A program made the position numbers and the translations under genes. A DNA stretch of 44,094 nt from an uncultured Candidatus Binatia bacterium (lineage in GTDB: Bacteria; Desulfobacterota; Binatia; UBA9968; JAJDTQ01): positions 1 to 44,094 of the forward strand of contig CBDCAF010000017.1 in the NCBI GenBank assembly GCA_965213675.1, read 5' to 3'. The notes under the pieces are model-generated. The model was not told the origin of the DNA and made no database searches. It worked only from the letters and a program-made list of their open reading frames with translations. This document shows, in pieces, positions 2 through 39,794 of this stretch; positions within the stretch are counted from its first letter, which is position 1; every line of letters begins with the position of its first letter.

Positions 2-577
2 CGGCAGGTCCGGCGATGCGCTACGTCCGAGGTCCAGGGAAAAGGTTTCGGTGCGGGCCGGTTCGACGCCTTGGGTAGTCTGGGCCAGGAACACCGCAGT
101 GCGAAGCCCCGCGCGCATGAGCGCCAGGCCAAACTCGCCTGGGTCGGACCCCTCCCGCGCCTTGGGCAGCACCACCAGCCCGGGCATTTGGCCGAACCGG
201 CTGAGTTCGCTGCCGGGGCCGCACATGTCGATGATGGCCTCCTCGGACCGGGGCAGGGAACCGGACGTCACCACGGCCACGCCGTCCAGCGCGTGGGTGC
301 GGCCGAGGCCGCACTGGTACAGCGGTCCGAGGCTGCCGGGGAACGCGCCGCCGCGTTCCGGGTCCTTCCAGCGCGGCTCGACGATGTCCACCACGTGGAG
401 CACCCGGGTGCGCTCGCCGGGCCGGACGATGCTCAGCTCGACGTCATCAATGAGCGGTTCGGCCAGCAGTTCGGCGCGCAGCGCCTCGCGGTTGACAATG
501 AGTTCGCCTTCCCGATATTCGGTGTGGGCACCCCAGGAAAGGGACCGGACAGGGTAATGGGCCAGCTCGAAATCCAC
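2..577 (-). CDS. Glycine/sarcosine/betaine reductase component B subunit family protein (GrdE/PrdA-like), runs off the window edge
   Basis: Not in the ORF track; read manually on the minus strand. AGGAGGT RBS then GTG at 577 gives MDFELAHYPVRSLSWG...ELSIVRPGERTRVLHVVDIVEPR...GAFPG...GLGRTHALDGVAVVTSG...EEAIIDMCGPG, matching GrdE-type blocks (RPGE, VIEPR, GRTH.L.GVAV, IIDM.GPG). Confidence 0.75.
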   Translation of the reverse strand, partial: MDFELAHYPVRSLSWGAHTEYREGELIVNREALRAELLAEPLIDDVELSIVRPGERTRVLHVVDIVEPRWKDPERGGAFPGSLGPLYQCGLGRTHALDGVAVVTSGSLPRSEEAIIDMCGPGSELSRFGQMPGLVVLPKAREGSDPGEFGLALMRAGLRTAVFLAQTTQGVEPARTETFSLDLGRSASPDLP

Positions 578-613
578 GCGACCTCCTGGTGTCATCCGTT
601 GAAGGCAATCCCC

Positions 614-3763: not shown

Positions 3764-4795
3764 ATGCTCAGAATAGATGCTGACGCACACGTTCTCGAAA
3801 CCGAGGAAACCTGGGAGTTCATGGACGGCGCGGACCGCAAGTACCGGCCCGAGGTCGTCGGCTCCACCAACGGCTCGGGCTCCGGGGACGAGTACTGGCT
3901 GGTGGACGGAACCCTGCGGCTCAAGACCCGGAACGTGGGCAAGGACACGCCGCTGGAGTCCCGCGAACTGCGTGACGTGGCGGCGCGGCTCAAGCACATG
4001 GACGAGCTCAAGGTGGACATCCAGGTCATCTTCCCCACCATCTTCATCATCCCGCTGACACCGCGCCCCGAGATCGAGCTGGCGTTGTGCCGCAGCTACA
4101 ACCGCTGGATGGGCGAGTGCTGGAAACAGTCCGACAACCGTCTGCGCTGGGTGGCGATGGTGCCGCTCCTCAGCCCGGACCAGGTGCATGAGGAAGCCCG
4201 GCTGGCCAAGGAGAACGGCGCGGTGGGCATCTACATGCGCGGCTCCGAGGGCGAACGGCTGCTGAACGATCCCTTCTTCTATCCAGTGTACGACGCCGCC
4301 GGCCGGCTGGACATCCCGGTGTGCATCCACGCCTCCAACGGCAGCTCCGTGCTGTTCGACTACTACAAGTATGAGCCCGTGGCCTTTTCGAAGTTCAAGC
4401 TGGTGGTGGTGGGGGCGTTCCACACCATCGTCGCGGGCGGAATCCCTCAGCGATTCCCACAGCTCAAAATGGGGTTCCTGGAGGTCAGCGCGCAGTGGCT
4501 GCCCTACGCGCTGACCGACCTGTACAAACGCCCGTACGTAAAGGAGCAGGGGTTCAAACGGAACGAGCTGCTGGCAAAGAACCGGATCTGGGTCGGATGC
4601 GAGACCACCGACGACCTTCCCTACATCATCGACAACGCCGGCGAGGACCACCTGGTGGTGGGCACCGACTACGGCCACGCCGACAGCGCCACCGAACTGC
4701 TGGCCATAGACGGCGTTGCCAACGACCCGCGCCTGAGCCCCGGGGTGGCGGCCAAGATCACCGGCGGGAACGCGCGGGCGCTGTACAACCTTTGA
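3764..4795 (+). CDS. Amidohydrolase_2 family protein, tandem copy 2
   Basis: Same length (343 aa) and highly similar to 2710..3741; GGAGG RBS. Confidence 0.9.
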   Translation: MLRIDADAHVLETEETWEFMDGADRKYRPEVVGSTNGSGSGDEYWLVDGTLRLKTRNVGKDTPLESRELRDVAARLKHMDELKVDIQVIFPTIFIIPLTPRPEIELALCRSYNRWMGECWKQSDNRLRWVAMVPLLSPDQVHEEARLAKENGAVGIYMRGSEGERLLNDPFFYPVYDAAGRLDIPVCIHASNGSSVLFDYYKYEPVAFSKFKLVVVGAFHTIVAGGIPQRFPQLKMGFLEVSAQWLPYALTDLYKRPYVKEQGFKRNELLAKNRIWVGCETTDDLPYIIDNAGEDHLVVGTDYGHADSATELLAIDGVANDPRLSPGVAAKITGGNARALYNL

Positions 4796-10699: not shown

Positions 10700-10981
10700 A
10701 TGAGCACACGACGACGGTTCAGCGGAGACTTCAAGGCGAAGGTGGCGCTGGAGGCGCTGCGCGGGGACAAGACGATCCAGGAGATCGCTGTGCGGCACAA
10801 GGTTCATCCGAACCAGGTGAGCACGTGGAAGCAGCGTGCGGTGGAGGGGATGAAGGAGGTTTTCACGAAGGGTGCGGAGCGGACGAGGGGCGACCACGAG
10901 GGGGAGGTTCGGGACCTGCACGCGAAGATCGGGGAGTTGACGGTGGAGCGGGATTTTTTGGCCAAAGGGCTCAAGTGGTGA
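10700..10981 (+). CDS. IS3 transposase OrfA (HTH)
   Basis: RRRFSGDFKAKVALEAL...IAVRHKVHPNQVSTWK...LHAKIGELTVERDFL. Confidence 0.93.
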   Translation: MSTRRRFSGDFKAKVALEALRGDKTIQEIAVRHKVHPNQVSTWKQRAVEGMKEVFTKGAERTRGDHEGEVRDLHAKIGELTVERDFLAKGLKW

Positions 10982-11901
10982 GCCGGGAGAAGCGCCGGGG
11001 GATGATCGAGCCCGGCCATCCCAAGCTCAGCTTGAGCCGTCAATGCCATCTGCTTCGAGTGAGTCGATCCTCCGTGTACCACAGGCCCAAGGGCGAGAGC
11101 GCGGAGAATCTGGCGCTGATGCGCCGGATCGATGAGTTGTTTCTGGAGTACCCCTTCTACGGCAGCCGCCAGATGGTCCGCCATCTGTGGCGGGAGCGAG
11201 TCCGAGTGGGTCGTCACCGGGTGCGGCGTCTGATGCGCCTGATGGGTCTACAGGCCATCTACCAGGCGCCGCGGACCACCCGACCGCACCCCGAGCACCG
11301 GGTCTACCCCTATCGGCTCAAGGGGGTCGCCATCGAACGGCCCAATCACGCGTGGACCTCCGACATCACCTATATCCCTGTCCAGAAGGGCTTCCTGTAC
11401 CTGGTGGCGGTGATGGACTGGGCCACCCGCCGGGTGCTCTCCTGGAGGCTGTCGAACACCCTCGATGCCCGCTTCTGTGTCGAGGCCCTCTCAGAGGCTC
11501 TGGAACGCTACGGTCCTCCCGAGATCTTCAACACCGACCAGGGCAGCCAGTTCACCAGCCTGGAGTTCACCTCCGTGCTCAAGGACGCCGGCGTCGCCAT
11601 CTCCATGGACGGCAGGGGCCGGTGCATGGACAACATCTTCATCGAGCGCCTGTGGCGCTCCCTCAAGTACGAGGCCGTCTACCTGCACGAGCTCTCGGAC
11701 GGCTTCGCCGCCCAAAGGACCATCGCCAACTGGCTCCACTTCTACAACACCCAAAGGCCTCATTCCGCCCTCGCCGGCTCCACCCCGGCCGAGGCCTACG
11801 AACGAGGACTCAAGAGGCAGGCCGGACCTCACACCCCGCCCGCCCCTCTGTCAGTTCCATCGGAACACGAAGACGTGATAAACGGGACCTTGGCGGCATG
11901 A
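10978..11901 (+). CDS. IS3 transposase OrfB (DDE integrase core), -1 frame relative to OrfA
   Basis: YGSRQM, WTSDITYI, NTDQGSQFTS, DNIFIERLWRSLKYE, YNTQRPHSAL. GTGA overlap with the OrfA stop; T-run GATTTTTTG nearby is a possible frameshift site. Confidence 0.93.
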   Translation: MSREKRRGMIEPGHPKLSLSRQCHLLRVSRSSVYHRPKGESAENLALMRRIDELFLEYPFYGSRQMVRHLWRERVRVGRHRVRRLMRLMGLQAIYQAPRTTRPHPEHRVYPYRLKGVAIERPNHAWTSDITYIPVQKGFLYLVAVMDWATRRVLSWRLSNTLDARFCVEALSEALERYGPPEIFNTDQGSQFTSLEFTSVLKDAGVAISMDGRGRCMDNIFIERLWRSLKYEAVYLHELSDGFAAQRTIANWLHFYNTQRPHSALAGSTPAEAYERGLKRQAGPHTPPAPLSVPSEHEDVINGTLAA

Positions 11902-12558: not shown

Positions 12559-12820
12559 GGTTACCTCCTGGAAGCGCGACACCAGCATGGTTGCAACGGT
12601 ACCGGGTTAAGCCAACCATTCCCAGGTTTTCTCAAAAGTTCAAGGGGCCACTGGTAGCTCTCTGGAATATTGGCAGAAATTTCCCATGCCGAGGCCTCGC
12701 TCGGTCGTGCTCCTCGGGGGGCGTGGGATAGTGCCCTACGGTGGACAAAACGACCCAAAAAGGCATAAGAAGGACCTGAACCAACAAGAAAAAGAGGAGG
12801 ATCGAAACTTGAGCGTAAGC

Positions 12821-13867
12821 ATGCCGACAACTACGACCGGCCTGGACCCGGCCACCGAGATCATCGTATCCGCGGACTCCCACATCATGGAGCCCACGGA
12901 CCTGTGGGTCAAGAACCTCCCCGCGAGCTTCAAGGGCCGCTATCCCGAGTTTCCGCCCCGGAACGCCATCGGCGAGAAGCCCGGCGGCTACGACCCGCGG
13001 GCGCGGGTGGAGGAGATGGCGGTGGACGGAGTGTCCGCCGAGGTACTCTACCCGACCCTGGGACTGCGCCTGTTCGCCCTGGAGGACGCAGAGCTTCAGG
13101 AAGCCTGCTTCGAACTCGCCAACGACTGGCTCATCGACTACTGCAAGGTGCACCCCCACAAGCTCGTGGGCGTGCCGTCGATCTCGCTCTACAACATCGA
13201 CAACGCCATCAAGGAACTGGAGCGCTGCAAGAAGGCCGGGCTGGTGGGCTGCCTGATCTGGCAGGTGCCGCCGGATCACCTCCCCTTCACCAGCGACCAC
13301 TACAACCCGTTCTGGGAGGCGGCGCAGGATCTGCAGATGCCCGTCAACCTGCACATCCTCACGGGGTTCAACTACAGCCGGTACGAAAGAGAGGGCCTGG
13401 ACGTCTACCGCATGACCGTCAACCAGAAGCTGGCGGACGCCGCCAACACCCTGTTCGAGTTGGTCTTCGGCGGCCCCATGTCCAACTATCCGGACCTCAA
13501 GTTCGTGTACGTGGAGAACGAGATCTCGTGGATCCCGTTCTACCTCCACGAGTGGGACAAGTACTTCAAGCGCCACGCCACCAAGGCGCCGCTGCCGCAC
13601 ATGAAGAAGCTTCCCAGCGAGTACTGCAGCGAGCAGTTCTACGCCACCTTCTTCAGCGACCCCACCGGCGGCCGGCTGCTGGACTGGTGGGGCAGCGAGA
13701 CCTGCATGTGGTCCAACGACTACCCGCACGCGGCGTCCACCTGGCCGCACTCGCGCCAGGTCATCACCGACGAGCTCGGACACCTGCCGTCGGACATCTT
13801 CCGCAAGGTGGTGCGCGAGAACGTGCTGAAGCTCTACGACCTCAAGCTGGAGGGCGTCAACGCCTGA
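12821..13867 (+). CDS. Amidohydrolase_2 family protein
   Basis: VSADSHIMEP, DGVSAEVLYPT, PVNLH, MWSNDYPH. The start could be TTG 12809. Confidence 0.9.
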   Translation: MPTTTTGLDPATEIIVSADSHIMEPTDLWVKNLPASFKGRYPEFPPRNAIGEKPGGYDPRARVEEMAVDGVSAEVLYPTLGLRLFALEDAELQEACFELANDWLIDYCKVHPHKLVGVPSISLYNIDNAIKELERCKKAGLVGCLIWQVPPDHLPFTSDHYNPFWEAAQDLQMPVNLHILTGFNYSRYEREGLDVYRMTVNQKLADAANTLFELVFGGPMSNYPDLKFVYVENEISWIPFYLHEWDKYFKRHATKAPLPHMKKLPSEYCSEQFYATFFSDPTGGRLLDWWGSETCMWSNDYPHAASTWPHSRQVITDELGHLPSDIFRKVVRENVLKLYDLKLEGVNA

Positions 13868-17752: not shown

Positions 17753-18898
17753 GTGTACCTAGACTACGCTGCGACGACCCCTGTTGCACCGGAAGTCGCG
17801 AACACGATGGCCAAGTTTCTGACAGCCGACGGCGTCTTCGGAAACCCGCATTCCGTCACCCACCGCTTTGGGCATGCAGCTTCAGAGGCTATTGAGGAGG
17901 CCCGCGGGCATGTCTCGCGGTTGATCGGCGCAGACGCCGATGAAATCTTCTGGACCTCCGGTGCGACAGAGGCGATCAATTTAGCCATCAAGGGAGTAAT
18001 GCTATCGCCTAGCGTACGCGGTCGGCATCTCCTCGTCTCCTCACTAGAGCATAAGGCAGTACTCGATACCGCAGACTGGCTCTCTGGCCAGGGCGTGGAG
18101 GTGACCTACCTCACACCTGACGCCGATGGCATGATCACGCCGGATGTCGTCCGCGCGGATCTTCGACCGGACACCGCGTTAGTCTCCCTTATGCACGTAA
18201 ACAATGAGGTTGGGACTGTTACTGATATCCCGAGCATAGCGCGCGTGGTACGGAAAAACGGCACACTGTTTCATGTCGACGCCGTACAGAGCGCCGCACG
18301 ACTTCCGATCGATGTCTCGCTCATGGGAGTAGACCTCCTGTCATTGAGCGGCCACAAGATATATGGCCCGAAAGGTGTGGGTGCTCTATTTGTGCGCCGC
18401 TCCGTTCGGCCGTTGCTCATCCCCCAGATCCATGGAGGCGGACAAGAAGCTGGGCTGCGGGCTGGGACGTTGGCGACCCACCAGGTTGTTGGTCTAGGAG
18501 CGGCGGCGCGGCTCACAAACGACTGTCAGAGTAGTGACGCGGAACGAGTGGCAGCCATCGACCGACGCCTCCTTGGCTGGTTGGACGAGATTGGCGGGGC
18601 GGTCGTCAACGGCAACCGTACCGCGCGAGTCCCAGGCATTTTGAACATTGCCTTTCCCGGCGTGGAGGCCGAGTCGCTGATGCTGGCTCTTGGCGATGTT
18701 GCGATCTCGGCAGGTTCCGCATGCACGGCGGCGTCGATTGAGCCATCACACGTGCTGGAGGGACTCGGTGTCACCGAAACGCTGGCACTCTCCTCCGTGC
18801 GATTCAGCGTTGGTCGCTATACTACAGAGGTAGAGGTCGACTTCGTTGGACAACGCGTTAATGACGCTGTGTCAACCCTTCGGAGCATCACGACATGA
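17753..18898 (+). CDS. dndA: Cysteine desulfurase (IscS/DndA type)
   Basis: YLDYAATTP, FGNPHS, WTSGATEAIN, EHKAV, HVDAVQ, SLSGHKIYGPKG (PLP Lys), SAGSAC (catalytic Cys). The dndA name rests on its ATGA coupling to dndC. Start uncertain (GTG 17753). Confidence 0.88.
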   Translation: MYLDYAATTPVAPEVANTMAKFLTADGVFGNPHSVTHRFGHAASEAIEEARGHVSRLIGADADEIFWTSGATEAINLAIKGVMLSPSVRGRHLLVSSLEHKAVLDTADWLSGQGVEVTYLTPDADGMITPDVVRADLRPDTALVSLMHVNNEVGTVTDIPSIARVVRKNGTLFHVDAVQSAARLPIDVSLMGVDLLSLSGHKIYGPKGVGALFVRRSVRPLLIPQIHGGGQEAGLRAGTLATHQVVGLGAAARLTNDCQSSDAERVAAIDRRLLGWLDEIGGAVVNGNRTARVPGILNIAFPGVEAESLMLALGDVAISAGSACTAASIEPSHVLEGLGVTETLALSSVRFSVGRYTTEVEVDFVGQRVNDAVSTLRSITT

Positions 18899-20067
18899 AG
18901 GCGCCGACGAGTTCAACGGCGACCAGTAACAGCCTGACGAGTCTACCTACGCGGCTCAAGAAGATCGCAGAGACCCTCCGACGGGAGTACTGTCGCAAGC
19001 ACGGCCATCCCTGGATTGTTGCTTATTCTGGAGGGAAGGACTCTACCCTTCTCCTACAGATGATTTGGGAAACAGTTGCCGGGCTACCAACAGACCAACG
19101 GCAGCGATCCATCTTCATCGTCGGCAATGATACTCTAGTCGAGTCGCCGCTCGTCATTCGGCATCTCCGAGGATCGCTCAACGTGATTGAGGCCGCCGCC
19201 ACAACACAAGAAATGCCTGTGGACATTCGGGTCACCACACCAGCCATCGATCAGACCTTTTGGGTGAGTGTGATAGGGCGGGGATACATACCTCCCACCA
19301 GGAATTTTCGGTGGTGCACAGACCGAATGAAAATTCGGCCGACTGGCCGTCTGTTGCAAGACATCGTGAGAGAGCATGGGGGGGCCGTTCTCCTAATCGG
19401 TAGCCGCCGGAGCGAGTCACAAAACCGGCAGCGAGGCATGGACCGACGCAAGGTGTCTGCCGGGAAAAGCAATCAACACGACTCTGTGGAGGGCTGTCGG
19501 ATATTCTCCCCGCTTGCCGACCTCAGCGATGAGGATGTCTGGATGGTATTGATGCAGCGCCGCCCACCATGGGGCGGCACCCATCGCCGGCTAATCACTC
19601 TCTATCGTCAAGCCGGAGGGGGCGAGTGTCCACTGGTAATGACACAAGACGACGCACCGTCATGTGGCAGTTCCTCCCCACGATTCGGCTGTTGGACATG
19701 CACGGTGGTCACTAAAGACCGCAGTCTCCGGGGCCTGATCGATTCAGGGCACGAGGAGGCCAAGAAGATGGAAAGCCTGTCGGACTTCCGCGAATGGCTC
19801 ATCGCCTTGCGGGAGGACGACAGCAATCGACTTCCCGTGCGCCGTGACGGTAACCCTCGGAACCGGTCCGACGGCTCCCAGGTGTTCGGTCCATTCACCC
19901 TAGCAGTCCGCCGAACCATTCTTGATCGACTCTTTGCACTAGAGAAAACGGTCGGCGACACCCTCATCAGCCCGGCGGAAATCGAGTGCATCGAAGACGT
20001 TTGGTGGCGTGACGAGATCACCGAAAACGGTCGACTCGCCCTTCTCAAATCCGTACATCCCTTATGA
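18895..20067 (+). CDS. dndC: DNA phosphorothioation sulfurtransferase DndC (PAPS-reductase/PP-loop family, Fe-S)
   Basis: PWIVAYSGGKDST, NDTLVESP, FWVSVIGRGYIPP, FRWCTDRMKIRP, GSRRSES, PPWGG, ECPLV, SCG...RFGCWTCTVV.KDRSL, GPFTL..R. Confidence 0.9.
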   Translation: MKAPTSSTATSNSLTSLPTRLKKIAETLRREYCRKHGHPWIVAYSGGKDSTLLLQMIWETVAGLPTDQRQRSIFIVGNDTLVESPLVIRHLRGSLNVIEAAATTQEMPVDIRVTTPAIDQTFWVSVIGRGYIPPTRNFRWCTDRMKIRPTGRLLQDIVREHGGAVLLIGSRRSESQNRQRGMDRRKVSAGKSNQHDSVEGCRIFSPLADLSDEDVWMVLMQRRPPWGGTHRRLITLYRQAGGGECPLVMTQDDAPSCGSSSPRFGCWTCTVVTKDRSLRGLIDSGHEEAKKMESLSDFREWLIALREDDSNRLPVRRDGNPRNRSDGSQVFGPFTLAVRRTILDRLFALEKTVGDTLISPAEIECIEDVWWRDEITENGRLALLKSVHPL

Positions 20068-21836
20068 CCCAGATCACGTCAGAGGCATTGCTCGTGTCCG
20101 AGCTCTTCCTCAAGGGACGGTTCACAGTGCCGTGGCATCAGCGGTATTACGACTGGACCGTAGAGCAGGTCACCGAGTTGTTGGTCGACCTCAAAGAAGC
20201 CCTGGACGAAGATCGGGCAAGTTACTTCCTCGGGTCCATTATGCTGGTCGCGGGTGAGGATGTTTGGGAAATCAACGACGGTCAGCAGCGCATGATCACC
20301 CTCTCCCTACTCTTTGCTGCATTCGGCCGGCGGTTCGCAAATAACCGCGAAACGGACGCTGGCCGTGAAATGCTCGCGTTGCGCGTACTGTTCGATCGCC
20401 CGGAGAACGCGGTCACCAACTTCGACGACACGACCCGGGATGTGCCTCGCGTCGAACCGCCACGCCAAGACCGATCGCGGTTTACTCAGATTATCCGTGG
20501 CCTCGACATCGGGACGAACGGCAAATTGACCTCCGCCTGGAACGAAGTGGCCCTGTTCGTCAGCGCAATGGGGCCGAGTGAGACCCAAACGTTTTTCGAT
20601 TTCCTGACGCAGAAGGTAGAGATTGGTGTCCTCTACGTCCCCAAGACAGAGGACGCCAATGCCGTTTTCGAAGCCCTCAATGGACGAGGCAAGCGACTGG
20701 ATGACGTTGATCTAATTCGAAACCACCTTTACTCGTACTTCACAGATCCTGCCGACTCAGAGCGGCGCGCCACCGTCCACGAGCAGCTTGAAAGCGTCCT
20801 CGCAACTACTCGAAGCACTACGCGATCCCAAGAGTATTTCCGCTGTTTCTTTCAATGTCGGTACGGCTATCTTCAGAAGACCCGCTTTTATCGCGATACT
20901 CGGGCGAAGATCCGCAATCCTGGGCGACGACCGGATGGAGACAAGCACGTTTACGCGCTAGTCCATGAGCTTGCTAGTCCCGCTGCCGTGGAACTGTTCC
21001 GGACTATCACTGCCACAAACCCAAGCAAGGAACTGCTTAATGCCTTCTGCACGGCGTCCGGCACCACCCGAAACAAACGTAATCTGCCTGTGTTCATTCA
21101 GGAATTGGGTGGTTATAAGGTCGTGCAACCGCTAATGTTTGCATTGTTACGGAAGTTCATTGAAGCCGAAGATCGGTACCGGAGAGCAGTAGCCAAAGCC
21201 GCGCATCACTGCCTCAGCGACCTTTCTTCCTTCGTGATGCGCGTCTCCTTCTGCGGGGCCAAATTCGAACCATCCAGAGTCGAGCCGGGTTTTGCCAATT
21301 GTGCCAGGAGAATCGCGACCAGTAGCAAGGTCGCTGACCTCGACATAAAAACAGATCTCGAAGAATGTGATGACTTGATGATAATGGACGACACACGATT
21401 TATTTCTCGCCTCCTCGATGTTCAGATGACCGATTCCCGGCGAGCCAAACGACTGTTGTTCGGAATCAACGGCAAGCAAGAACGTGAAGGCCGCGCATTC
21501 GACTATGAAGGATGTTCCGTGGAACACATCTTGCCGCAGTCGGAGACCTACTGGTCCGGCTGGACCGGCTTCACGTCGGTGGGATACGACCTCCGGGACT
21601 GGGTTGCTCGAATCGGGAATCTGACATTGCTGGGCGACAGCGGAAATCATGCACGGCACCGTTTCAACGCGAACTTCGCCGCCAAGAAGGCTGTTTTTGA
21701 GACCAGCCCATTTGGAATGACGCGCGATGTAGCTATACATGACGAGTGGACTCCGACGGCGGTGGCCGAACGCTCAAGGGACCTCGCAAAGGCGGCCGCT
21801 CAGGTGTGGTGCTTTTCCGGACGCGAGGAGAGCTAA
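20064..21836 (+). CDS. DUF262 + DUF1524 (HNH) protein, GmrSD/SspE-like modification-responsive nuclease
   Basis: VPWHQRYYDW, YFLGSI, INDGQQR, VFEALNGRGKRL (DUF262); SVEHILPQ and RIGNLTLL...N (DUF1524). ATGA overlap with dndC. Confidence 0.88.
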   Translation: MTQITSEALLVSELFLKGRFTVPWHQRYYDWTVEQVTELLVDLKEALDEDRASYFLGSIMLVAGEDVWEINDGQQRMITLSLLFAAFGRRFANNRETDAGREMLALRVLFDRPENAVTNFDDTTRDVPRVEPPRQDRSRFTQIIRGLDIGTNGKLTSAWNEVALFVSAMGPSETQTFFDFLTQKVEIGVLYVPKTEDANAVFEALNGRGKRLDDVDLIRNHLYSYFTDPADSERRATVHEQLESVLATTRSTTRSQEYFRCFFQCRYGYLQKTRFYRDTRAKIRNPGRRPDGDKHVYALVHELASPAAVELFRTITATNPSKELLNAFCTASGTTRNKRNLPVFIQELGGYKVVQPLMFALLRKFIEAEDRYRRAVAKAAHHCLSDLSSFVMRVSFCGAKFEPSRVEPGFANCARRIATSSKVADLDIKTDLEECDDLMIMDDTRFISRLLDVQMTDSRRAKRLLFGINGKQEREGRAFDYEGCSVEHILPQSETYWSGWTGFTSVGYDLRDWVARIGNLTLLGDSGNHARHRFNANFAAKKAVFETSPFGMTRDVAIHDEWTPTAVAERSRDLAKAAAQVWCFSGREES

Positions 21837-21953
21837 TGGTCAATGAAGTCATATGTATTTGCAGTTCGCTGGTCACAGGCTAACTTCGATGACACAGCAC
21901 ATTTCGCGGGCGGTTATCGAGACATGCCAACGAGATATCGCTGAAGCTGCCGT

Positions 21954-23366
21954 GTGGGTGTGGGTCTTCGAGTGACGCTGGACGTGCAAGATCTCCGGAG
22001 CGCGGCCGAAGATCAACTCATGCTCCCCGCCGCCCTTCACACGTACCAGTGGGAGGGAGTGGCATTCCTGTACCAGTCCACGTCTGCCCTTCTCGCTGAC
22101 GAGATGGGATTGGGAAAAACCGTCCAGGCAGCAATCGCTCTTGCACTTCTCCTCAATGGACAAAAGGGGATCGACCGAGCCCTGATCGTGGCCCCGGCCT
22201 CGCTGACGCTGAACTGGATGTCCGAACTCACTACATGGGCACCGTCACTGGCGACGCGACGGCTTCAGGGCGGGGCCGCCAGCCGGAAGGCATTCTACCT
22301 GCTGCCGATCCCTGTTCTCGTTTCCTCTTACGAACAGATCCGTCAAGACGGACTGGATCAGATTCCCAAAGGCACGTTCGATCTCGTCATCCTGGACGAA
22401 GCGCAACGCATCAAGAACAAGAACTCCGCAACGGCACTCGCCTGCCGGCTGCTGCCGCGAAAACGTGCGTGGGCACTGTCTGCGACGCCGCTCGAAAACG
22501 ACCGCGAAGACGTCGCCTCAATCCTCGCCTTCCTGGACCCCGATATTCGTCGGGATCCCGATGCAACACGGCTGAACAAGAGGCTGGAGGCAATGATGCT
22601 GCGGCGGCGGAAACGTGAAGTGCGGGCCGAACTGCCGGCTGTCATCGTACAGGATCTGTACCTCGAGCTCTCGTCGCCACAAAGGATCGCCTACGACGAT
22701 CTGTGGGCGGCCAGAACGGCACAAATCGGCGGGGAAAAGGAAGACTCCAACGCCGCCATGCTCGGTCTCATTACGCGACTAAAGGTGATCTGCAACTACG
22801 ACGTCGAGAGCGGTGCTTCATCGAAACTGGAGGCCCTCACAGCCATCTGCGAAGGCGCTGGGCAATCGGCGAGGATGATTGTGTTTTCGCAGTTCGTCCA
22901 GACCCTGCGGCAGATTTCCCAGCGGATCGGAATACCCCACGACCTTCTGATCGGATCCATGCCGGCAGCCGAGAGACAGATTTCTATCGACCGGTTCAGG
23001 ACAGGCCAAACACCGCGGGCACTATTGATTTCCCTTCGTGCCGGCGGCGTCGGCCTGAACCTCGGGGAGGCGACCCACGCCGTCCTGTTCGACCGCTGGT
23101 GGAATCCTGCAGTCGAGTTCCAGGCAGTCTACCGAGCGCACCGCTTCGAACGGGAAGGGCCGCTGCATGTCATCCGTTTCCTGGTCCGAGACTCGGTCGA
23201 AGAGCGCATAGCTACAGTGCTCGACCGGAAGGAGGCCCTATTCGACGAGGTCATCGAATCTGTGGGGACGGTGCGCGGGCGACTCACCAAGCGCGAACTC
23301 ATGGAGATTTTAGAACTTGCGGAGGGCACCCTTTCGCCCTCTTCCAATGCAACCGAAGGAGACTAA
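21954..23366 (+). CDS. SNF2-family ATPase/helicase (core domains only)
   Basis: YQWEGV, LLADEMGLGKT, LIVAPASL..NW, ILDEAQRIKN, LSATPLEN, LRRRK, IVFSQF, SLRAGGVGLNL, DRWWNPA, RAHRF. Start uncertain. Confidence 0.93.
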   Translation: MGVGLRVTLDVQDLRSAAEDQLMLPAALHTYQWEGVAFLYQSTSALLADEMGLGKTVQAAIALALLLNGQKGIDRALIVAPASLTLNWMSELTTWAPSLATRRLQGGAASRKAFYLLPIPVLVSSYEQIRQDGLDQIPKGTFDLVILDEAQRIKNKNSATALACRLLPRKRAWALSATPLENDREDVASILAFLDPDIRRDPDATRLNKRLEAMMLRRRKREVRAELPAVIVQDLYLELSSPQRIAYDDLWAARTAQIGGEKEDSNAAMLGLITRLKVICNYDVESGASSKLEALTAICEGAGQSARMIVFSQFVQTLRQISQRIGIPHDLLIGSMPAAERQISIDRFRTGQTPRALLISLRAGGVGLNLGEATHAVLFDRWWNPAVEFQAVYRAHRFEREGPLHVIRFLVRDSVEERIATVLDRKEALFDEVIESVGTVRGRLTKRELMEILELAEGTLSPSSNATEGD

Positions 23367-23370
23367 AGCC

Positions 23371-24189
23371 ATGGCAAAAATCATCGATTACCGCGAAATA
23401 CCCCTCGACGACTTGGTAATTGGTCTGGGACAGGTCCGGACAGAGAACCCGGGGGCCGGCGTTGAGGATCTCGCCGCAAGTATCGAAGCGCAAGGGCTAC
23501 TGCAACCGATCGTGGTTTGCAAGTCGAAACAACAGCCCGGGAAATGGGAGATCCTTACAGGTCAGCGGCGCTTCCTCGCTTACAAGATGCTGAATCGAGA
23601 CACCATCTCGGCCGCCGTGCTTGACAGCCAAGTCGGGCAGGCTGAGGCCAAGACAATCTCCATCACCGAAAACCTAATACGTCGCAAGCTGTCGGGCAAA
23701 GAACTCAAGGATGGAATCCTTTACCTTTACAACATATACGGAAGCGTTCAGGACGTGGTCAAGACAACAGGCCTGCCCCATCGGGAAGTGCGGGACTACG
23801 TAAAGTACCCCCGGCTGGTGAAACAACTGAAGGACTTGGTCGACGAAGGACAAGTTGATGTCAATGCCGCACTGCGTGCGCAGGATTCGGCAACGGACGA
23901 CGACGGCGCGGTCAACACCGACGACGCCCTTGTCTTGGCCCAGGAGATGGCATCGATGTCAGGAGCCCAACGCAAGAAGGTGGAGGAGGATCGAAGAGAC
24001 AATCCCGACAAGTCTGTCGTAGAGGTTATAGAGGGCGCGAAGTCCGGCTCGAAGGTCATCCAGGTTGTCGCTACCGTGACACAGGATACGCATCGTGCCA
24101 TCCAGCAGGTCGCCCGGGAAGAAGGCACCAACCAGGGAGACGCGACCGTCATGCTCATCGAAGAGGCGCTGACCGGCCGCGGACTCTGA
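23371..24189 (+). CDS. ParB/RepB/Spo0J-like protein (ParB N-domain, HTH, possible C-terminal ribbon-helix-helix)
   Basis: IPLDDL, QVR, LAASIEAQGLLQPIVV, EILTGQRRFLA, SITENLIRRKLS; AAGGAG RBS. Confidence 0.85.
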   Translation: MAKIIDYREIPLDDLVIGLGQVRTENPGAGVEDLAASIEAQGLLQPIVVCKSKQQPGKWEILTGQRRFLAYKMLNRDTISAAVLDSQVGQAEAKTISITENLIRRKLSGKELKDGILYLYNIYGSVQDVVKTTGLPHREVRDYVKYPRLVKQLKDLVDEGQVDVNAALRAQDSATDDDGAVNTDDALVLAQEMASMSGAQRKKVEEDRRDNPDKSVVEVIEGAKSGSKVIQVVATVTQDTHRAIQQVAREEGTNQGDATVMLIEEALTGRGL

Positions 24190-24203
24190 GATTAGTAGCC
24201 ATC

Positions 24204-24914
24204 ATGCTCCCAGGTCTGAGCCCTCTAGAACTTGGACGTCTCCGGATGTCGGTCGGCTACGGGAAACATAGAAAGCAGCGTCTACTTTCGCCGGTCGAAG
24301 TCGGTGCATTGCTGCAGCGGGCATGCGATGCCGGCAGTTCACTTGACGAATGTGCAAAGGAGACCTGGATCGACGCGACGGGCGTTAGACGTTTCCTGCG
24401 TATTCTTGACCTCCCGGACGACCTCCGGCACGTGATAAGTTGGGGCAGCCCTCGAGATGCCGTGGGGTTCTCTTGTGCTACCGAACTCACCCGACTTCCG
24501 AAAGCTGACGACCAACGCACGGTCGCCGAAGCGATACTCGCCAACGGCCTGAATAGCAAAGAGGTCCGACAGGTCGTGCAACTGCACGAACGCTCACGAC
24601 GGCCGGTCAGCGAGTGCGTGAAGGAAGTCATCAACATGCGGCAAGCAATCGACCGGCGTTACGTGTTCATCGGCACCATACTTGATCGCGGTGCACAGCG
24701 AGCTCTTGCGGAGCTTCCACAAAGAGAAAGGGATGCAATGTTGGCGGCGGGCGTGGAGAAAATCGGGCTAAAGGGGGCGTCAGGACGCCTAGGCCCCAAA
24801 ATTTTCACCTTGGTCGGGGACGAGGGTTTTGGCGTGTCAATGAAGCATGTCGGCAAGCAAGACATTGAATCTCTGCTGCGCGCCTTTGTTGCGGAGTGTG
24901 TCGCAAATGCCTGA
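24204..24914 (+). CDS. Hypothetical protein resembling the ParB/Spo0J central HTH domain without the N-terminal CTPase domain
   Basis: LSPVEVG..L...GSSLDECA......VRRFLRILDLPDDLRHVI..G.....SCATELTRL...DQRTVAEAILANGLNSKEVRQVV parallels the Spo0J HTH/helical region. Confidence 0.6.
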   Translation: MLPGLSPLELGRLRMSVGYGKHRKQRLLSPVEVGALLQRACDAGSSLDECAKETWIDATGVRRFLRILDLPDDLRHVISWGSPRDAVGFSCATELTRLPKADDQRTVAEAILANGLNSKEVRQVVQLHERSRRPVSECVKEVINMRQAIDRRYVFIGTILDRGAQRALAELPQRERDAMLAAGVEKIGLKGASGRLGPKIFTLVGDEGFGVSMKHVGKQDIESLLRAFVAECVANA

Positions 24915-25929
24915 CCCGATGGTTGACGTGCGGGAGAGTGGCGCTGTCTGCCTCGGCGAGATGGTCGTGTGCGACGGTTTCGCTAATGGCTGCCGCTTCC
25001 GTGTCCAGACACACGTCCATGAAGACCACATGGGTGCGTTCAACAAGAGCAAGGGGCTGCAGGAGTTCCTGCTAAGCCCTGAGACCTATGCTTTGCTCAT
25101 TGCCGAGTACAATGCTGATCTGGAGTACCGAGAGAACTTCCACCCGGTCGAACGCGGTGTCGCGCATGATCTGGGAAAAGGCTTTACGTTACATCTAGTC
25201 CCATCGAACCACATGCTTGGATCGTGTCAGGTTGCCCTGGAGTTGCCAGACGGTCATCGGATTGGATATTCCGGCGACTTCGGATGGCCCCTCGACAACG
25301 TGATCCAAGTCGATGAACTGGTCGTTGACAGTACTTATGGTAACCCCCGTAGCGTCCGAGGTTACACGCAGGACCAAGCGGAAGCCTGCCTGTCTGAAAT
25401 AGTCTGTGCGAGACTACGGCACGGTTCAGTCCATATCCACGCCCACCCCGGAACCATCGAACGCACCTTGCAGGTGCTTGGAGACAACGTGGGCGTTCCC
25501 CTTCTGGCCACCGAGCGGCTAATCCGGCGCGTGCAGGTATACCAGCAGCATGGCCTCGCGCCCGGAGTACTGGTTCCGCTCGATTCCGCCGACGGCAGGC
25601 ACGCCGTGCAACAGCGTTCATATGTGCGGCTCTACTCAAAGGGCGACGGTTTCAAGAACGAGCGAGTCGAGGGGACAATGGTCACCTGTAGCGCGTACAT
25701 GGTCGACCACGACCATCCGCTGAAGGTCTTTTCAGATCGGGCCTATCGCGTGGCCTTGTCGAACCACGCTGATTTCGAAGAAACCCTTGCGTATGTCGCG
25801 GCGACGGGAGCGCAGACGGTAGTCACCGACAACACACGAAACTTCGGCTGTGACTTGGCAATCGCGATCAATGACCGCCTACCCAATGTTTGTGCACAGC
25901 CGTCGACGAACCAGCCCGAACGGGACTGA
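24907..25929 (+). CDS. Metallo-beta-lactamase fold nuclease, beta-CASP-like
   Basis: THVHEDH (HxHxDH), NHMLGS, GYSGDF, VDSTYG, LSNHADF. ATG overlaps the upstream gene by 8 nt. Confidence 0.82.
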   Translation: MPDPMVDVRESGAVCLGEMVVCDGFANGCRFRVQTHVHEDHMGAFNKSKGLQEFLLSPETYALLIAEYNADLEYRENFHPVERGVAHDLGKGFTLHLVPSNHMLGSCQVALELPDGHRIGYSGDFGWPLDNVIQVDELVVDSTYGNPRSVRGYTQDQAEACLSEIVCARLRHGSVHIHAHPGTIERTLQVLGDNVGVPLLATERLIRRVQVYQQHGLAPGVLVPLDSADGRHAVQQRSYVRLYSKGDGFKNERVEGTMVTCSAYMVDHDHPLKVFSDRAYRVALSNHADFEETLAYVAATGAQTVVTDNTRNFGCDLAIAINDRLPNVCAQPSTNQPERD

Positions 25930-27743: not shown

Positions 27744-28955
27744 TCAGGCGGGCGGATTCCCGGAGACGATGGCGGGGAGGTCGCGCAGCGACACGGCGGT
27801 CACGCCCTCACCGAGGGAATGGCTGGACACGGGCCGGCCGATGACGTAGTGCGGGCCGGGGCGCCAGGGGCTGTTGGACGCGGCCAGCCCGGCGCTCACT
27901 CGCAGCAACCCGCGCGCGTCACGCAGGGTGGGCCGCTCGCTCCACTTGCATTCCATGAAGCCGAGGACGCCGCCGGCGTCGCGCACGAAGTCCACTTCCT
28001 GGCCGCGCTGGTCGCGGTAGTACCAGAAGTTGACAGGCGCGGACTCGGCCTCGTTCAGCTTGCGCATCTCCGCGAACACGAACGTCTCCCATACCGCGCC
28101 CAGGGCCGGCGAGGTGAGCAGCGTGGAGGCGTCGAGCCCCAGCAGAAAGCAGAGCAGGCCGCTGTCGCGGAAATAGACCTTCGGCGTCTTCACCACTCGT
28201 TTGCCGAAGCTCACGTGCCAGGGTTCCAGCAGGACGATCTGGCCGGACGCCTGGAGCACGCTCACCCACTCGCCGATGGTCTTCACCGCCACGCCGGTGT
28301 CCCGTGCGACGTCGCTCTTGTTGAGCATGGCCGCCGAGCGCGCCGCCAGGACGCGAACGAAGCGCTCGAAATCCCGGAGACTCGCCACGTTCAGGATCTG
28401 GCGCACGTCGCGCTCGAGGTAGGTGGCCAGGTACGATGCGAGGAAATCCGTAGCCGGCAGTTCCGGCGCGCGCCACAACTCCGGGAACTGCCCCCGGGCC
28501 ATCAGGCCGGCGAGGCTGGCCGCGTCGTCACCGGTTGGGGTCACGGCGTCGATCTCGTGCAGCGCCAGGTTTTCCAACTCCACGATCCCGCAACGGCCCG
28601 CAAGACTGTCCGAGGTCCCTTTCATGAGCGTGAAGTTCTGGCTGCCGGTGAGGATGTAGCGGCCCATGTCATGGCGACGGTCATCGATGGCCGCCTTCAC
28701 GTGGCGGAACAGGCCGGGCGCGTACTGCACCTCGTCGATGAGCACGGGCGCCGGATGGTGGTGCAGGAACAGGTCCGGATTGCGTTCGGCCTGGTCGGCC
28801 GTGGTGGGGAGGTCCAGGGAGACGTAATGATGATCCGGGAAGGTAGCGCGCATCAGGGTCGTCTTGCCCGCCTGACGCGCACCGGTGACTACCACCGCCG
28901 GAAAGTGCTCCGCGAGCCGGAGCAGCCGGTCAGCCAGAGCCCTGGGGTACTGCAT
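27744..28955 (-). CDS. AAA_14 ATPase with DUF4143 / C-terminal PD-(D/E)xK-like domain
   Basis: TGARQAGKTT, IDEVQY, ILTGSQ, SLAGR, TYLERDV, KTPKVYFRDSGL, EVDFV, MECKW. Confidence 0.9.
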   Translation of the reverse strand: MQYPRALADRLLRLAEHFPAVVVTGARQAGKTTLMRATFPDHHYVSLDLPTTADQAERNPDLFLHHHPAPVLIDEVQYAPGLFRHVKAAIDDRRHDMGRYILTGSQNFTLMKGTSDSLAGRCGIVELENLALHEIDAVTPTGDDAASLAGLMARGQFPELWRAPELPATDFLASYLATYLERDVRQILNVASLRDFERFVRVLAARSAAMLNKSDVARDTGVAVKTIGEWVSVLQASGQIVLLEPWHVSFGKRVVKTPKVYFRDSGLLCFLLGLDASTLLTSPALGAVWETFVFAEMRKLNEAESAPVNFWYYRDQRGQEVDFVRDAGGVLGFMECKWSERPTLRDARGLLRVSAGLAASNSPWRPGPHYVIGRPVSSHSLGEGVTAVSLRDLPAIVSGNPPA

Positions 28956-33393: not shown

Positions 33394-34503
33394 CTATGCC
33401 TTGGCCGCGACCTGGGCGCCCGCGGTTGCCGGCTTGTAGAACCGCTCCGCGTTGCGATAGAGCATGGCGGCCTTGTCTTCGCCGGTCATCTCGTCACTCT
33501 CCATGAGCTCGCCGAGGTCATGCATGCAGCTCTGGGTGGTGACCTCGTGGGGGAAGTCCGAGGAGTACAGGAACGGCCGGTGCCCCACGGTCTTGATGGC
33601 GAAGGGCAACGTCAGCTCCTCGGCCTCGATGCCCAGGTAGAAGCGATCCGCCTCGATGAGCTGCTTGATGATCTTGGCCGGGTCCTGGTCCTCGCCGATG
33701 CTGAACTCGCCGTCCGGGATGTACTGGAAGTGCGTCTCGTGGGACGCGTGCAGCCGTTCCAGCAGCATCAGCAGCCAGGCCACGCCGCCTTCGAGGAAGG
33801 CGATGCGCACGTTGGGAAAGCGCTCGAAGATGCCGTTGTAGAGGATGTTGGCACAGTTGAGGGCGATGCCCCAGGGGTGGCCCAGCGCGTGCACGGGCAC
33901 GTACATGTTCATCTGGTCGAGCCCGAAACGGTCGTGGCAGCCGCCATGCACCGCGAGGCAGCAGCCCAGCCGGTCGGCCTCTTCATAGATGGGCCAGTAG
34001 GCCTTGGCGCCCAGCGGCAGCGGCAGGCCGTTGGAGGGCATCATGGCGCCCATCATGCCCAGCTCGGTGACGATGCGGTGCAACTCCTTGGCGGCCTCCT
34101 CCGGGTCCTGCATGGGGATCAGGCCCATGGCGTTGAAGCGCGGGTCGCGCTGCAGGTACGTGTGGTACGCCCAGTCGTTGTAAGCCTTGCAGGCGGCGAT
34201 GGCGTAGTCGAGGCTCACGATCTTCCCGTAGCCCAGCCCCTGGGTCGGATACATCACGGTCCAGTCGATTCCCACGTCGTCCAGGAACTTCATCCAACCG
34301 TCGGGACCCACCTTCTCCCGTCCGTCCCGGAGCGGCGGCGTCTCCACCGCGCGTCCGTCATGAAGATGGTCGATGGGCGGGAAGATGATGCCCTTCTTGG
34401 CGGCGATGTCCCGGTAAGGCCCGTCCATGTGCTCGAGGATTCCGGGGTTGTCCTCCAGGATGTGGCCGTCGCCGTCGATAATGCGTGTATTGAGACCGGA
34501 CAT
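33394..34503 (-). CDS. Amidohydrolase_2 family protein
   Basis: IIDGDGHILE, YNDW, LAVHGG, RFPNVRIAFLEGG, SSDFPHE. Confidence 0.9.
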   Translation of the reverse strand: MSGLNTRIIDGDGHILEDNPGILEHMDGPYRDIAAKKGIIFPPIDHLHDGRAVETPPLRDGREKVGPDGWMKFLDDVGIDWTVMYPTQGLGYGKIVSLDYAIAACKAYNDWAYHTYLQRDPRFNAMGLIPMQDPEEAAKELHRIVTELGMMGAMMPSNGLPLPLGAKAYWPIYEEADRLGCCLAVHGGCHDRFGLDQMNMYVPVHALGHPWGIALNCANILYNGIFERFPNVRIAFLEGGVAWLLMLLERLHASHETHFQYIPDGEFSIGEDQDPAKIIKQLIEADRFYLGIEAEELTLPFAIKTVGHRPFLYSSDFPHEVTTQSCMHDLGELMESDEMTGEDKAAMLYRNAERFYKPATAGAQVAAKA

Positions 34504-39791: not shown

Positions 39792-39794
39792 GCG

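Follow-up and report, generated by a model that had tools for sequence, protein, structure and literature searches.

The window, a 44,094-nt stretch of DNA from an uncultured Candidatus Binatia bacterium, carries a cassette of seven co-oriented genes (17753-25929). With somewhat better than even confidence, it is read here as a phosphorothioate (PT) defence unit that resembles restriction-modification and operates without DndD or DndE, PT formation, nicking and defence all being functions that we infer. The cassette probably tags the DNA backbone of its host cell with sulfur and cuts untagged foreign DNA. Judged from its genes, it is an uncharacterised, DndD/DndE-less variant of putative PT defence, glimpsed in print and never studied. 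The same cassette occurs across many unrelated bacterial phyla and is not a local accident.

Overlapping genes for a desulfurase, a short DndC and a DUF262-DUF1524 nuclease

The first three open reading frames of the cassette lie on the + strand at 17576/17753-18898, 18895-20067 and 20064-21836. The stop codon of the desulfurase gene and the start codon of dndC share an ATGA at 18895-18898 (ACGACATGAAGG), and the dndC stop shares another with the start of the nuclease gene at 20064-20067 (CCTTATGACCC). The original prediction that such overlaps join the three genes was borne out when the sequence was read at both sites, and its domain calls held as well, with matches to Aminotran_5, PAPS_reduct/DndC, GmrSD_N and GmrSD_C. 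As far as the sequences tell, the overlaps exceed chance, because they are conserved among related loci. The sole intergenic gap within the window cassette measures 117 nt, and thus there is no space for DndE inside it.

The gene at 17753-18898 (+ strand, GTG start) encodes a 381-aa cysteine desulfurase of the IscS/DndA/SspA type, as assigned with Pfam, NCBIfam and PADLOC profiles. Its residues 1-363 match positions 1-369 of Aminotran_5 (279.6 bits); the start at GTG 17753 fits this full-length match, and a purine-rich stretch lies immediately 5′ of the codon. NCBIfam scores of 477.5 bits for IscS and 378.9 bits for DndA do not reach the equivalog cutoffs (548 and 480, respectively), and PADLOC gave 483 bits for SspA and 472 bits for DndA. 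The translation contains both the PLP lysine, in SGHK, and the active-site cysteine, in SAGSAC.

The second gene (18895-20067, + strand) encodes a short DndC of 390 aa, a PP-loop (SGGKDS) sulfurtransferase according to TIGR03183 and PADLOC. Its TIGR03183 score of 335.2 bits is above the curated equivalog cutoff of 290.4 and covers profile positions 6-341 of 447; the domain is also recognised as PAPS_reduct. With PADLOC, 370.8 bits were obtained for DndC, 36.7 for BrxP and 23.4 for SspD. The protein lacks the C-terminal extension of ~150 aa that E. coli DndC has, and the nearest annotated plasmid DndCs (44-49% identical), which lie in dnd clusters with DndD, are also short (355-379 aa). SGGKDS is invariant in the alignment of DndC relatives. 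The conserved cysteines C141/C245/C257/C266/C269 align with C146/C262/C273/C280/C283 of E. coli DndC, which we take to be Fe-S cluster ligands. In Salmonella DndC, the C280S substitution is reported to abolish PT (PMC11662687). The DndC profile found no match among PDB sequences; in a fold search with the AF2 model, which is of moderate confidence (pLDDT 68.5), the nearest solved structures were the [4Fe-4S] PP-loop sulfurtransferases TtuA, NcsA and LarE.

The third gene (20064-21836, + strand) encodes a DndI/HEC-06-like protein of 590 aa, assigned from Pfam, PADLOC, PDB and Foldseek matches. It consists of an N-terminal DUF262 ParB-like NTPase domain (DGQQR, residues 72-76), a helical middle and a C-terminal DUF1524 HNH domain (EH 487-488, GN 518-519, N535). 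Both Pfam cutoffs are passed, with 89.8 bits for GmrSD_N (cutoff 33.2) and 64.6 bits for GmrSD_C (cutoff 23), and the DGQQR and HNH residues are invariant in 32 nuclease sequences.

Sequence and model comparisons agree that the nuclease is closest to DndI and HEC-06 and further from SspE. Its best PADLOC profile is HEC-06 (227 and 217 bits, near full length), as against 42.5 bits for SspE over the N-terminus only. The sole PDB sequence match is DndI (9JFL). With the AF2 model (pLDDT 89.4), Foldseek gave E 3e-16 and a TM of 0.65-0.67 to this structure at ~18% identity, versus TM 0.45/0.36 for SspE and a weak 0.31 for BrxU. The label "Dnd/Ssp hybrid", under which the unit had been described, is a misnomer, as the SspE matches are weaker by Foldseek TM, PDB and PADLOC alike. 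The PT-sensing Tyr25 of DndI pairs with H25 of the nuclease in a weak HMMER alignment (14 bits); W24 and H25 are both conserved in at least 90% of the family.

Conservation of the cassette at related loci

A search with two peptide patterns characteristic of this DndC clade yielded 121 confirmed related loci, of which the best 80 were compared; their DndCs are 56-100% identical to that of the window (the locus with 100% identity is the window's own lineage), and they span 11 named phyla. Among these best 80 of 121, nuclease sequence lies directly 3′ of dndC in 75 and is intact in 67. The junction is a 4-nt NTGA overlap in 53 (ATGA 32, GTGA 14, TTGA 7) and of another kind in 22, and five loci have no nuclease gene. 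A desulfurase gene directly precedes dndC in 60 of the 80, with a 4-nt overlap in 42 and a different junction in 18; in the other 20 none is found directly upstream. Pairwise distances of DndC and nuclease correlate (r = 0.82, 68 loci; none of 999 permutations as high), which co-inheritance alone could also explain. In 13 of the best 80 loci dndC is intact and the nuclease gene is not (truncated in 8, absent in 5), so that DndC has been retained, at least for a time, without the nuclease. The proposal that the three genes form one unit stands as to the conserved trio; the unit is larger here, since four more co-oriented genes follow up to 25929. The cassette is proposed to be horizontally mobile.

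Replacement of DndD and DndE and exchange of downstream modules

The textbook Dnd system requires DndD and DndE. Profile searches (Pfam, NCBIfam, PADLOC) detected no DndD in the window cassette and no DndB in the window. By tblastn with three plasmid DndDs, DndD-like genes were seen near only two of the best 80 of 121 loci, L002 and L068, with weak matches at L037 (partial) and L072. DndE was found by tblastn at none of the 80, in a search whose sensitivity is limited by its one small query protein. A dnd cluster on a Mesorhizobium plasmid has the order A-C-DndD-DndE-small-AAA-FtsK-AAA-hyp, and at L068 the order is A-C-nuclease-small-AAA-FtsK-AAA-hyp, with the downstream module as in the plasmid. 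The nuclease gene thus occupies the usual place of dndD by substitution, as had been predicted.

In the window, the nuclease gene is followed by four further genes on the + strand. The first gene of this accessory module (21954-23366) encodes a Snf2-family helicase/translocase core of 470 aa (Pfam SNF2-rel_dom and Helicase_C), with PDB matches to Snf2/ISWI/Rad54 cores. The second (23317-24189, start codon uncertain) encodes a ParB/Noc/KorB-type protein with a ParB N-terminal domain (ParB_N 50 bits in Pfam, TIGR00180 62.8 bits; PDB matches to Noc, ParB and KorB). The third (24204-24914) encodes a second ParB-related protein of 236 aa, which co-occurs with the module. A ParB HTH is its sole recognisable domain (HTH_ParB, 25.9 bits in Pfam), and no match was found in PDB, NCBIfam, PADLOC or PHROG. 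The fourth (24847-25929, start codon uncertain) encodes a 360-aa candidate nuclease with an MBL, beta-CASP-like fold. This assignment is weak: TIGR04122 (ligase-associated exonuclease) scored 47.9 bits, far under its cutoff of 325, an archaeal CPSF was matched in PDB at E 0.004, and neither a Pfam match at E 0.01 nor a plasmid match was obtained.

In 36 of the best 80 of 121 loci, the four genes of this module follow that of the nuclease in unchanged order, with a median nuclease-to-Snf2 gap of 6.5 nt. At other loci, the place of the module is taken by GIY-YIG and DndB genes or by a module with FtsK (small protein/AAA/FtsK/AAA), the latter being carried by L002 and L068. Mapping the two main modules onto the DndC tree requires a minimum of 12 label changes for each. 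Neither main module is present at 14 of the 80 loci, of which two have the FtsK module and some lie at contig ends. The window also carries AbiLi-like and PDC-S01-like genes.

Predicted DndC-nuclease complex and alternative explanations

Modelling of a DndC-DUF262 complex had been proposed as a check. The predicted DndC-nuclease complex scored 0.62, and the best of three controls scored 0.00. Of 157 solved complexes 116 reached this mark, as did 2 of 215 mismatched pairs; these counts are rough, because the alignments used here were our own. Contacts agreed to at least 93% between runs, with partner pLDDT of at least 82. As DndC has no PDB sequence match and resembles only TtuA, NcsA and LarE in fold, no like complex has been solved, and the score is unlikely to reflect a structure already known to the model. 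A natural fusion protein, P0127 (878 aa), combines a DndC of 42% identity with a DUF262...EHILPQ protein that is collinear with the nuclease of the window; it is the only such sequence, lies on a 5-kb contig and may be a frameshift artefact. At least eight DndC-DndD fusions were also found, which shows that fusion of DndC to a protein it works with does occur. At the predicted interface, residues vary more than the average residue: entropy was as low or lower in 4993 of 5000 random residue sets for DndC and in 4984 of 5000 for the nuclease, the comparison set not being restricted to surface residues. The model, together with the one natural fusion, supports binding of DndC and nuclease to each other.

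The predicted complex, and the occurrence of a DndC-DUF262 fusion alongside many DndC-DndD fusions, would also suit a nuclease that is chiefly a writer part. On this explanation, which is distinctly less likely yet to be taken seriously, the DUF262-DUF1524 protein, bound to DndC, replaces DndD/DndE (or SspB/SspC) by using its NTPase and HNH nickase to prepare DNA for sulfur insertion, and the downstream modules restrict. The nuclease gene holds the exact DndD-DndE place in the comparison of L068 with the Mesorhizobium cluster, each of the three alternative modules contains a nuclease or a translocase, and these modules are swapped frequently, by the count of label changes given above. However, DndI and HEC-06, the closest relatives that have been characterised, act as effectors and not as modification factors. 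The loci with neither main accessory module (14 of the best 80) and those with dndC but no intact nuclease gene (13) also argue against it, as does TdpC, which is reported to make PT without a partner (PMC12914056).

The lack of conservation at the predicted interface fits with genes that are mere neighbours in a defence island, where a stand-alone HEC-06/GmrSD-type enzyme would lie, with no functional link, beside an orphan DndA-DndC pair marking DNA for other purposes such as epigenetic or redox ones. Defence genes do cluster, the AbiLi-like and PDC-S01-like genes being at hand in the window, and HEC-06 reportedly defends alone (bioRxiv 10.1101/2024.01.29.577857). Chance proximity is nonetheless improbable when the nuclease adjoins dndC in 75 of the best 80 loci in 11 named phyla and overlaps it in 53, when distances of the two proteins correlate, and when a complex is predicted and a fusion protein known.

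Slightly more improbable still is thiolation of RNA or a nucleobase, instead of the DNA backbone, by the DndC-like enzyme, with the GmrSD-type protein acting as a type IV enzyme against modified foreign DNA. The tRNA thiolases TtuA and NcsA, plus LarE, as nearest solved folds, the moderate confidence of the DndC model and the missing DndD/DndE point in this direction; the DndC score above the curated equivalog cutoff, the nearest plasmid relatives in annotated dnd clusters with DndD, and the DndB-family proteins among the accessory modules point away from it.

That dndD/dndE were recently deleted or replaced in this genome alone, an idea for which the position of the nuclease gene and nothing more speaks, can be dismissed as highly improbable, since the DndCs of the best 80 of 121 loci form a single clade (SH-aLRT 99, stem length 1.84) apart from the DndD-linked plasmid DndCs and the arrangement is common to 11 named phyla. 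Close DndC homologues are not always followed by dndD, the nuclease gene being next in 75 of the 80, and on this sequence evidence the arrangement is not a recent dndD loss.

Proposed mechanism

The reading preferred here remains a PT-based defence unit in which the nuclease both partners DndC and restricts. The variable interface, the 13 loci without an intact nuclease and, by a weak alignment, His25 in place of Tyr25 stand against it, and the fusion in its favour, P0127, is one sequence. The IscS-type desulfurase would draw sulfur from cysteine, and the short DndC, as an ATP pyrophosphatase, would activate the DNA backbone phosphate and insert the sulfur, as expected from their families. The DndI/HEC-06-like protein would be made in step with DndC via the overlapping codons and, according to the model, may sit on it. 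By analogy with DndI, it would read PT as "self" and nick unmarked incoming DNA through its DGQQR NTPase and HNH domains; bound to DndC, it would probably also provide the DNA handling done classically by DndD/DndE. The Snf2-ParB-ParB-MBL module would be an exchangeable add-on of a translocase and a second nuclease, replaced in other genomes by GIY-YIG and DndB or by the small-protein/AAA/FtsK/AAA module.

Comparison with known systems

In having a desulfurase gene followed by dndC, the cassette resembles classical DndA(B)CDE and the DndC-small protein-DndD-FtsK plasmid variant, whose DndCs are also short; L002, L068 and the Mesorhizobium cluster have the small-protein/AAA/FtsK/AAA module in common. 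Unlike in classical Dnd, a DUF262-DUF1524 gene replaces those of DndD and DndE, and the DndC falls in a separate clade. In the Ssp system, SspA is a desulfurase and SspE, of DUF262 plus DUF1524 architecture, senses PT. The window shares this nuclease architecture and the presence of a desulfurase with SspABCD-SspE, but its PAPS-reductase protein is of the DndC and not the SspD type by the PADLOC scores above, and no SspB or SspC match was found with PADLOC among nine neighbouring proteins. From its domains, the nuclease is also like the GmrSD type IV enzymes.

TdpABC is a PT system of thermophiles in which TdpC has TdpA and TdpB as partners, a DUF262-HNH protein not being known among them. PT synthesis by TdpABC is reported to need only the DndC-like TdpC, without DndD/DndE (PMC12914056), and the window DndC would be alike in this respect, as far as TdpC has been described. 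HEC-06 is reported to be validated as a defence protein acting on its own, with both its DGQQR and E-H-I-x-P motifs required for defence (bioRxiv 10.1101/2024.01.29.577857). Both motifs are present in the window nuclease, for which HEC-06 is the best PADLOC match; unlike HEC-06, which acts alone and is embedded in Hma systems, its gene is coupled to a sulfur-insertion pair.

Contrary to the original prediction, DUF262-DUF1524 partners are not confined to Ssp, since DndI is the reported partner of IscS-DndBCDE in Salmonella Cerro 87 (PMC11662687; PDB 9JFL). The window differs from that system by being without DndB, DndD and DndE and, by the weak alignment, in having His25 for Tyr25 of DndI. Salmonella dndI is reported to be co-transcribed with dndFGH (PMC11662687), whereas the window nuclease gene is coupled to dndC and its product is predicted to bind DndC. 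The two systems are alike in combining a desulfurase and DndC with a DUF262 (DGQQR)-DUF1524 (HNH) protein of ~590-600 aa.

Gene organization of the trio and the cassette

The trio of genes encoding a cysteine desulfurase (17753-18898), DndC (18895-20067) and a DUF262-DUF1524 nuclease (20064-21836) seems, on balance and with modest confidence, to be a DndD/DndE-less phosphorothioate (PT) defence unit, in which a DndI-like protein on DndC reads the mark and an exchangeable effector lies downstream. The desulfurase would supply sulfur to DndC, and DndC would put the PT mark on DNA. Attached to DndC, the DndI-like protein would sense PT and nick unmarked DNA, and the downstream module would serve as a swappable second effector.

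The ATGA stop/start overlaps were confirmed at 18895-18898 and 20064-20067, where they join three plus-strand open reading frames. In profile searches the first of these (GTG start) proved to encode a complete class-V aminotransferase, of IscS/DndA/SspA type; its translation retains both the PLP lysine and the active-site cysteine. The second encodes a DndC of 390 aa that scored 335.2 bits with TIGR03183 (cutoff 290.4), and with PADLOC 370.8 bits for DndC versus 23.4 for SspD and 36.7 for BrxP. The third encodes a 590-aa protein with GmrSD_N and GmrSD_C domains (DUF262 and DUF1524). The original prediction of a three-gene unit held as to the joining of these genes but not as to its end, as the unit continues past 21836. 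After a gap of 117 nt four more plus-strand genes follow, encoding a Snf2 helicase core (21954-23366), a ParB/Noc/KorB-type protein (23317-24189), a protein with the ParB HTH domain only (24204-24914) and, by a weak assignment, an MBL/beta-CASP-like nuclease candidate (24847-25929). The whole cassette (17753-25929) is flanked by ordinary metabolic genes. G+C content is 0.54-0.60 at 16-27 kb versus about 0.63-0.70 over most of the remaining window. A tRNA scan found no tRNA genes in the window, hence no tRNA integration site. In a promoter and terminator scan of 16.4-26.8 kb, sites were no commoner than in shuffled sequences, which makes the scan uninformative for this organism.

Other features of the window were recorded. 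An IS3-type transposase gene (HTH_21, rve, rve_3; 10825-11901, plus strand) lies beside a sharp GC-skew excursion (0.18 at 10-11 kb). Just past the cassette, 27744-28955 (minus strand) encodes an AAA_14 and DUF4143 ATPase with a 325-bit match to PDC-S01, a candidate defence family of PADLOC. At 39240-41003 (minus strand), a region of lower G+C (0.59-0.63), a 402-aa AAA_21 ATPase (PADLOC AbiLi, 184 bits) is followed by a 183-aa protein that matched no family; the two may form an AbiL-type abortive-infection pair. A 114-aa open reading frame at 41163-41507 (plus strand) aligns with PADLOC PD-T4-2_B over the C-terminal part of that model (43.9 bits) and adjoins an SRAP (SOS response associated peptidase) gene at 41858-42574 (minus strand). 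Five Amidohydro_2 paralogues are present in the 44-kb window (71-1621, 2710-3741, 3764-4795, 12686-13867 and 33394-34503).

Distribution of the trio

More than 6000 DndC homologues were found by protein search; the best 120 are all 359-399 aa long and 67-90% identical. A genome scan was carried out with an alignment of 24 DndC homologues as query; 121 loci were confirmed and the best 80 were examined. DndC was the sole anchor of the scan, whose patterns, YIPPTRNF and SPRFGCWT, by design pick out this clade. The 80 loci fall into 11 named phyla (Pseudomonadota 25, Acidobacteriota 18, Binatota 9, Chloroflexota 7 and others), with 4 loci unassigned. An identical DndC, with flanking genes 94-98% identical to those of the window, is encoded in an uncultured Candidatus Binatia MAG (OZ244070.1), so that the window stems from this lineage or one very near to it. 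Several of the records bear names coined for sponge symbionts.

A quick IQ-TREE phylogeny of 87 rows, with SH-aLRT support only, long-branch warnings and a small outgroup, placed the 80 loci in one DndC clade (SH-aLRT 99, stem length 1.84) apart from seven plasmid DndCs. Because the DndC tree does not track the phyla, the sequences point to horizontal transfer. The closest annotated DndCs are plasmid-borne, 44-49% identical and 355-379 aa long, and lie beside DndD, a small protein and FtsK. Lone annotated DndC genes were seen on a Streptomyces plasmid (476 aa) and a Hymenobacter plasmid (447 aa), with no DndD, DndE or DUF262 genes within 6 kb.

Among the best 80 of the 121 loci, DUF262-DUF1524 gene sequence lies directly 3' of dndC in 75. 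Of the 80 loci, 67 have a nuclease gene that is intact (at least 560 aa), 8 a truncated or split one and 5 none; a 4-nt overlap between the dndC stop and the nuclease start is found in 53/80. The desulfurase gene is directly upstream of dndC in 60/80 loci, with a 4-nt overlap in 42/80. In 8 loci truncated DUF262-DUF1524 copies adjoin an intact dndC, and second or split copies occur in L033 (10673-12427, minus strand), L069 (12059-13282), L079 (11424-12170, minus strand), L026 and L030. In 7 loci the dndC reading frame stays open for 610-840 aa, giving the look of a desulfurase-DndC fusion. In the three checked by coordinates (L011, L022 and L071) the desulfurase match is in a different frame, and these were rejected as start-codon artefacts of GC-rich DNA.

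The DUF262-DUF1524 protein resembles DndI

In 32 nuclease sequences DGQQR (72-76), the QR..W motif, H488 (within the E-H-I-L-P motif), G518-N519 and N535 are invariant, and E487 is at least 90% conserved. The sole PDB sequence match is DndI (9JFL, E 1.2e-8), with collinear N-terminal, middle and C-terminal parts. The AF2 model is confident (pLDDT 89.4). In Foldseek comparisons it matched DndI (9JFL) with E 3e-16 and TM 0.65-0.67, SspE with TM 0.45/0.36 and lower, and BrxU with TM 0.31. The top PADLOC profiles were HEC-06 (227 and 217 bits) and 'Orf5' models (up to 158 bits); SspE reached 42.5 bits at the N-terminus only. HEC-06 is reported to be a GmrSD-like protein validated as a stand-alone defence, for which the DGQQR and EH residues are required (bioRxiv 10.1101/2024.01.29.577857). 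DndI is reported to nick PT-free DNA and to be freed from self DNA by PT-stimulated ATP hydrolysis (PMC11662687). Its PT-sensing Tyr25 pairs with a conserved His25 in the window nuclease family, in a stretch where the alignment is weak.

By analogy with DndI, the nuclease would read the mark. In the main alternative, which we regard as less likely, the protein would instead be a writer helper in the role of DndD/DndE, with restriction left to the downstream modules. Reading by the nuclease and help in writing can both be partly true.

Predicted association of DndC with the nuclease

Modelling of the DndC-DUF262 complex, which the original prediction had proposed, favoured binding: the score was 0.62 (runs 0.61, 0.62 and 0.65) versus 0.00 for the best of 3 controls. 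The score mark is met by 116/157 solved complexes and 2/215 mismatched pairs, counts that are only approximate because our own alignments were fed into the model. The runs share at least 93% of contacts, with partner pLDDT of at least 82. Predicted contacts involve residues 115-120, 148-160 and the C-terminal helix 360-388 of DndC, and residues 124-168, 244-248, 305-331 and 365-367 of the nuclease. No resembling solved complex was found in PDB sequence and fold searches. The model supports binding of DndC to the nuclease.

A search for longer DndC relatives yielded 22 proteins. One, P0127 (878 aa), is a DndC fused to a DUF262...EHILPQ protein collinear with the window nuclease. Other fusions were DndC-DndB (one, P0126), desulfurase-DndC (one; P0123 may be a genuine A-C fusion) and DndC-DndD (at least 8). 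Across 68 loci, the pairwise distances among DndCs rise with those among the nucleases (r = 0.82). Correlations were also found for DndC with the desulfurase (r = 0.86) and with Snf2 (r = 0.74); in each case 0/999 permutations reached the value.

That the genes are mere neighbours is unlikely given the model and the fusion, and several observations do weigh against a link. The predicted interface is more variable than average, so that its conservation adds no support for the complex; the fusion P0127 comes from one sequence only, on a single short contig; the distance correlations would be explained by co-inheritance alone; and dndC is intact in 13 loci that do not carry an intact nuclease gene.

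DndC and the absence of DndD and DndE

In the DndC alignment the PP-loop SGGKDS and five cysteines are invariant, the latter aligning with C146, C262, C273, C280 and C283 of E. coli DndC. In Salmonella the C280S change is reported to abolish PT (PMC11662687). E. coli DndC carries a C-terminal extension of about 150 aa, whereas the window DndC and the DndD-linked plasmid DndCs do not; because the latter are also short, a short DndC is no peculiarity of this clade. The AF2 model is moderate (pLDDT 68.5), and worst in the cysteine loops. The closest solved folds are the [4Fe-4S] PP-loop sulfurtransferases TtuA, NcsA and LarE, and no solved DndC, SspD or TdpC structure was found by PDB profile and fold searches. 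A DndC substrate other than DNA would be in keeping with these folds; set beside the DndC profile scores, it is quite improbable.

The 80 loci were searched by tblastn with three plasmid-encoded DndD sequences, a single DndE and the accompanying small protein. Only L002 and L068 gave DndD-like genes; L037 and L072 showed weak partial matches. DndE was detected in 0/80 loci with the one query, DndE being short and easily missed. Recent loss or replacement of dndD, the case named in the original prediction as refuting it, is highly improbable, the arrangement being shared by most of the 80 loci, across 11 named phyla.

Alternative accessory modules

Three alternative modules follow the trio in the 80 loci. 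The first, Snf2-ParB-ParB-MBL as in the window, keeps the same order and tight spacing in 36 loci. L004 carries it upstream in inverted orientation, and in L036 part of it is inverted. The second consists of a GIY-YIG protein of about 110 aa and a DndB-family (PF14072) protein of about 425 aa (for example L006, 11913-13557); GIY-YIG is present in 21 of the 80 loci and DndB in 29. The third comprises a small protein, an AAA ATPase, FtsK and a second AAA ATPase, then a hypothetical protein, and is joined to the trio only in L068 (12058-17846) and L002 (7104-11934, inverted); on a Mesorhizobium plasmid (L081, 12764-18526) it comes after DndD-DndE. A plasmid search with the MBL-like protein gave no match. 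The two main module labels change 17 and 15 times on the DndC tree, at least 12 changes each being forced by well-supported branches. Modules have thus been exchanged often, close relatives included.

Comparison with known systems

DndI with IscS-DndBCDE is already published (PMC11662687). A 2026 study lists 'DUF262' among dndC neighbourhoods as possible new PT systems without validation, and states that in tdpABC tdpC alone suffices for PT (PMC12914056). A term search of the 2024 Dnd reappraisal (PMC10853773) returned neither DUF262 nor GmrSD. No published account of the trio, its distribution, coupling or accessory modules was found in searches of the main texts of freely accessible papers. 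The trio would count as incomplete, or be overlooked, in marker surveys that call for dndD or a P-loop neighbour.

A bolder reading is a possibility that we hold only tentatively: DndC and the DndI-like protein may be one two-protein machine that writes and reads PT, its NTPase/HNH subunit replacing DndD/DndE and the same complex nicking unmarked DNA, with the cassette a cross-phylum mobile island carrying plug-in effector modules. It could account for a 2016 sponge metagenome study in which the PT system was called enriched yet 'not functionally complete' (PMC5099237). Work on the cassette would also give a function to the trio, which is widespread among uncultured bacteria from at least 11 phyla. 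The physically coupled writer and nuclease could reveal how self-marking is coordinated with restriction, and the compact two- or three-gene system allows one to ask what the minimal PT synthase is. If true, the two-protein machine would be the backbone-chemistry counterpart of single-complex restriction-modification enzymes. Tdp, described in thermophiles, was the first DndD/DndE-free PT route; if the minimal set installs PT, it would be a second, widespread one beside Tdp.
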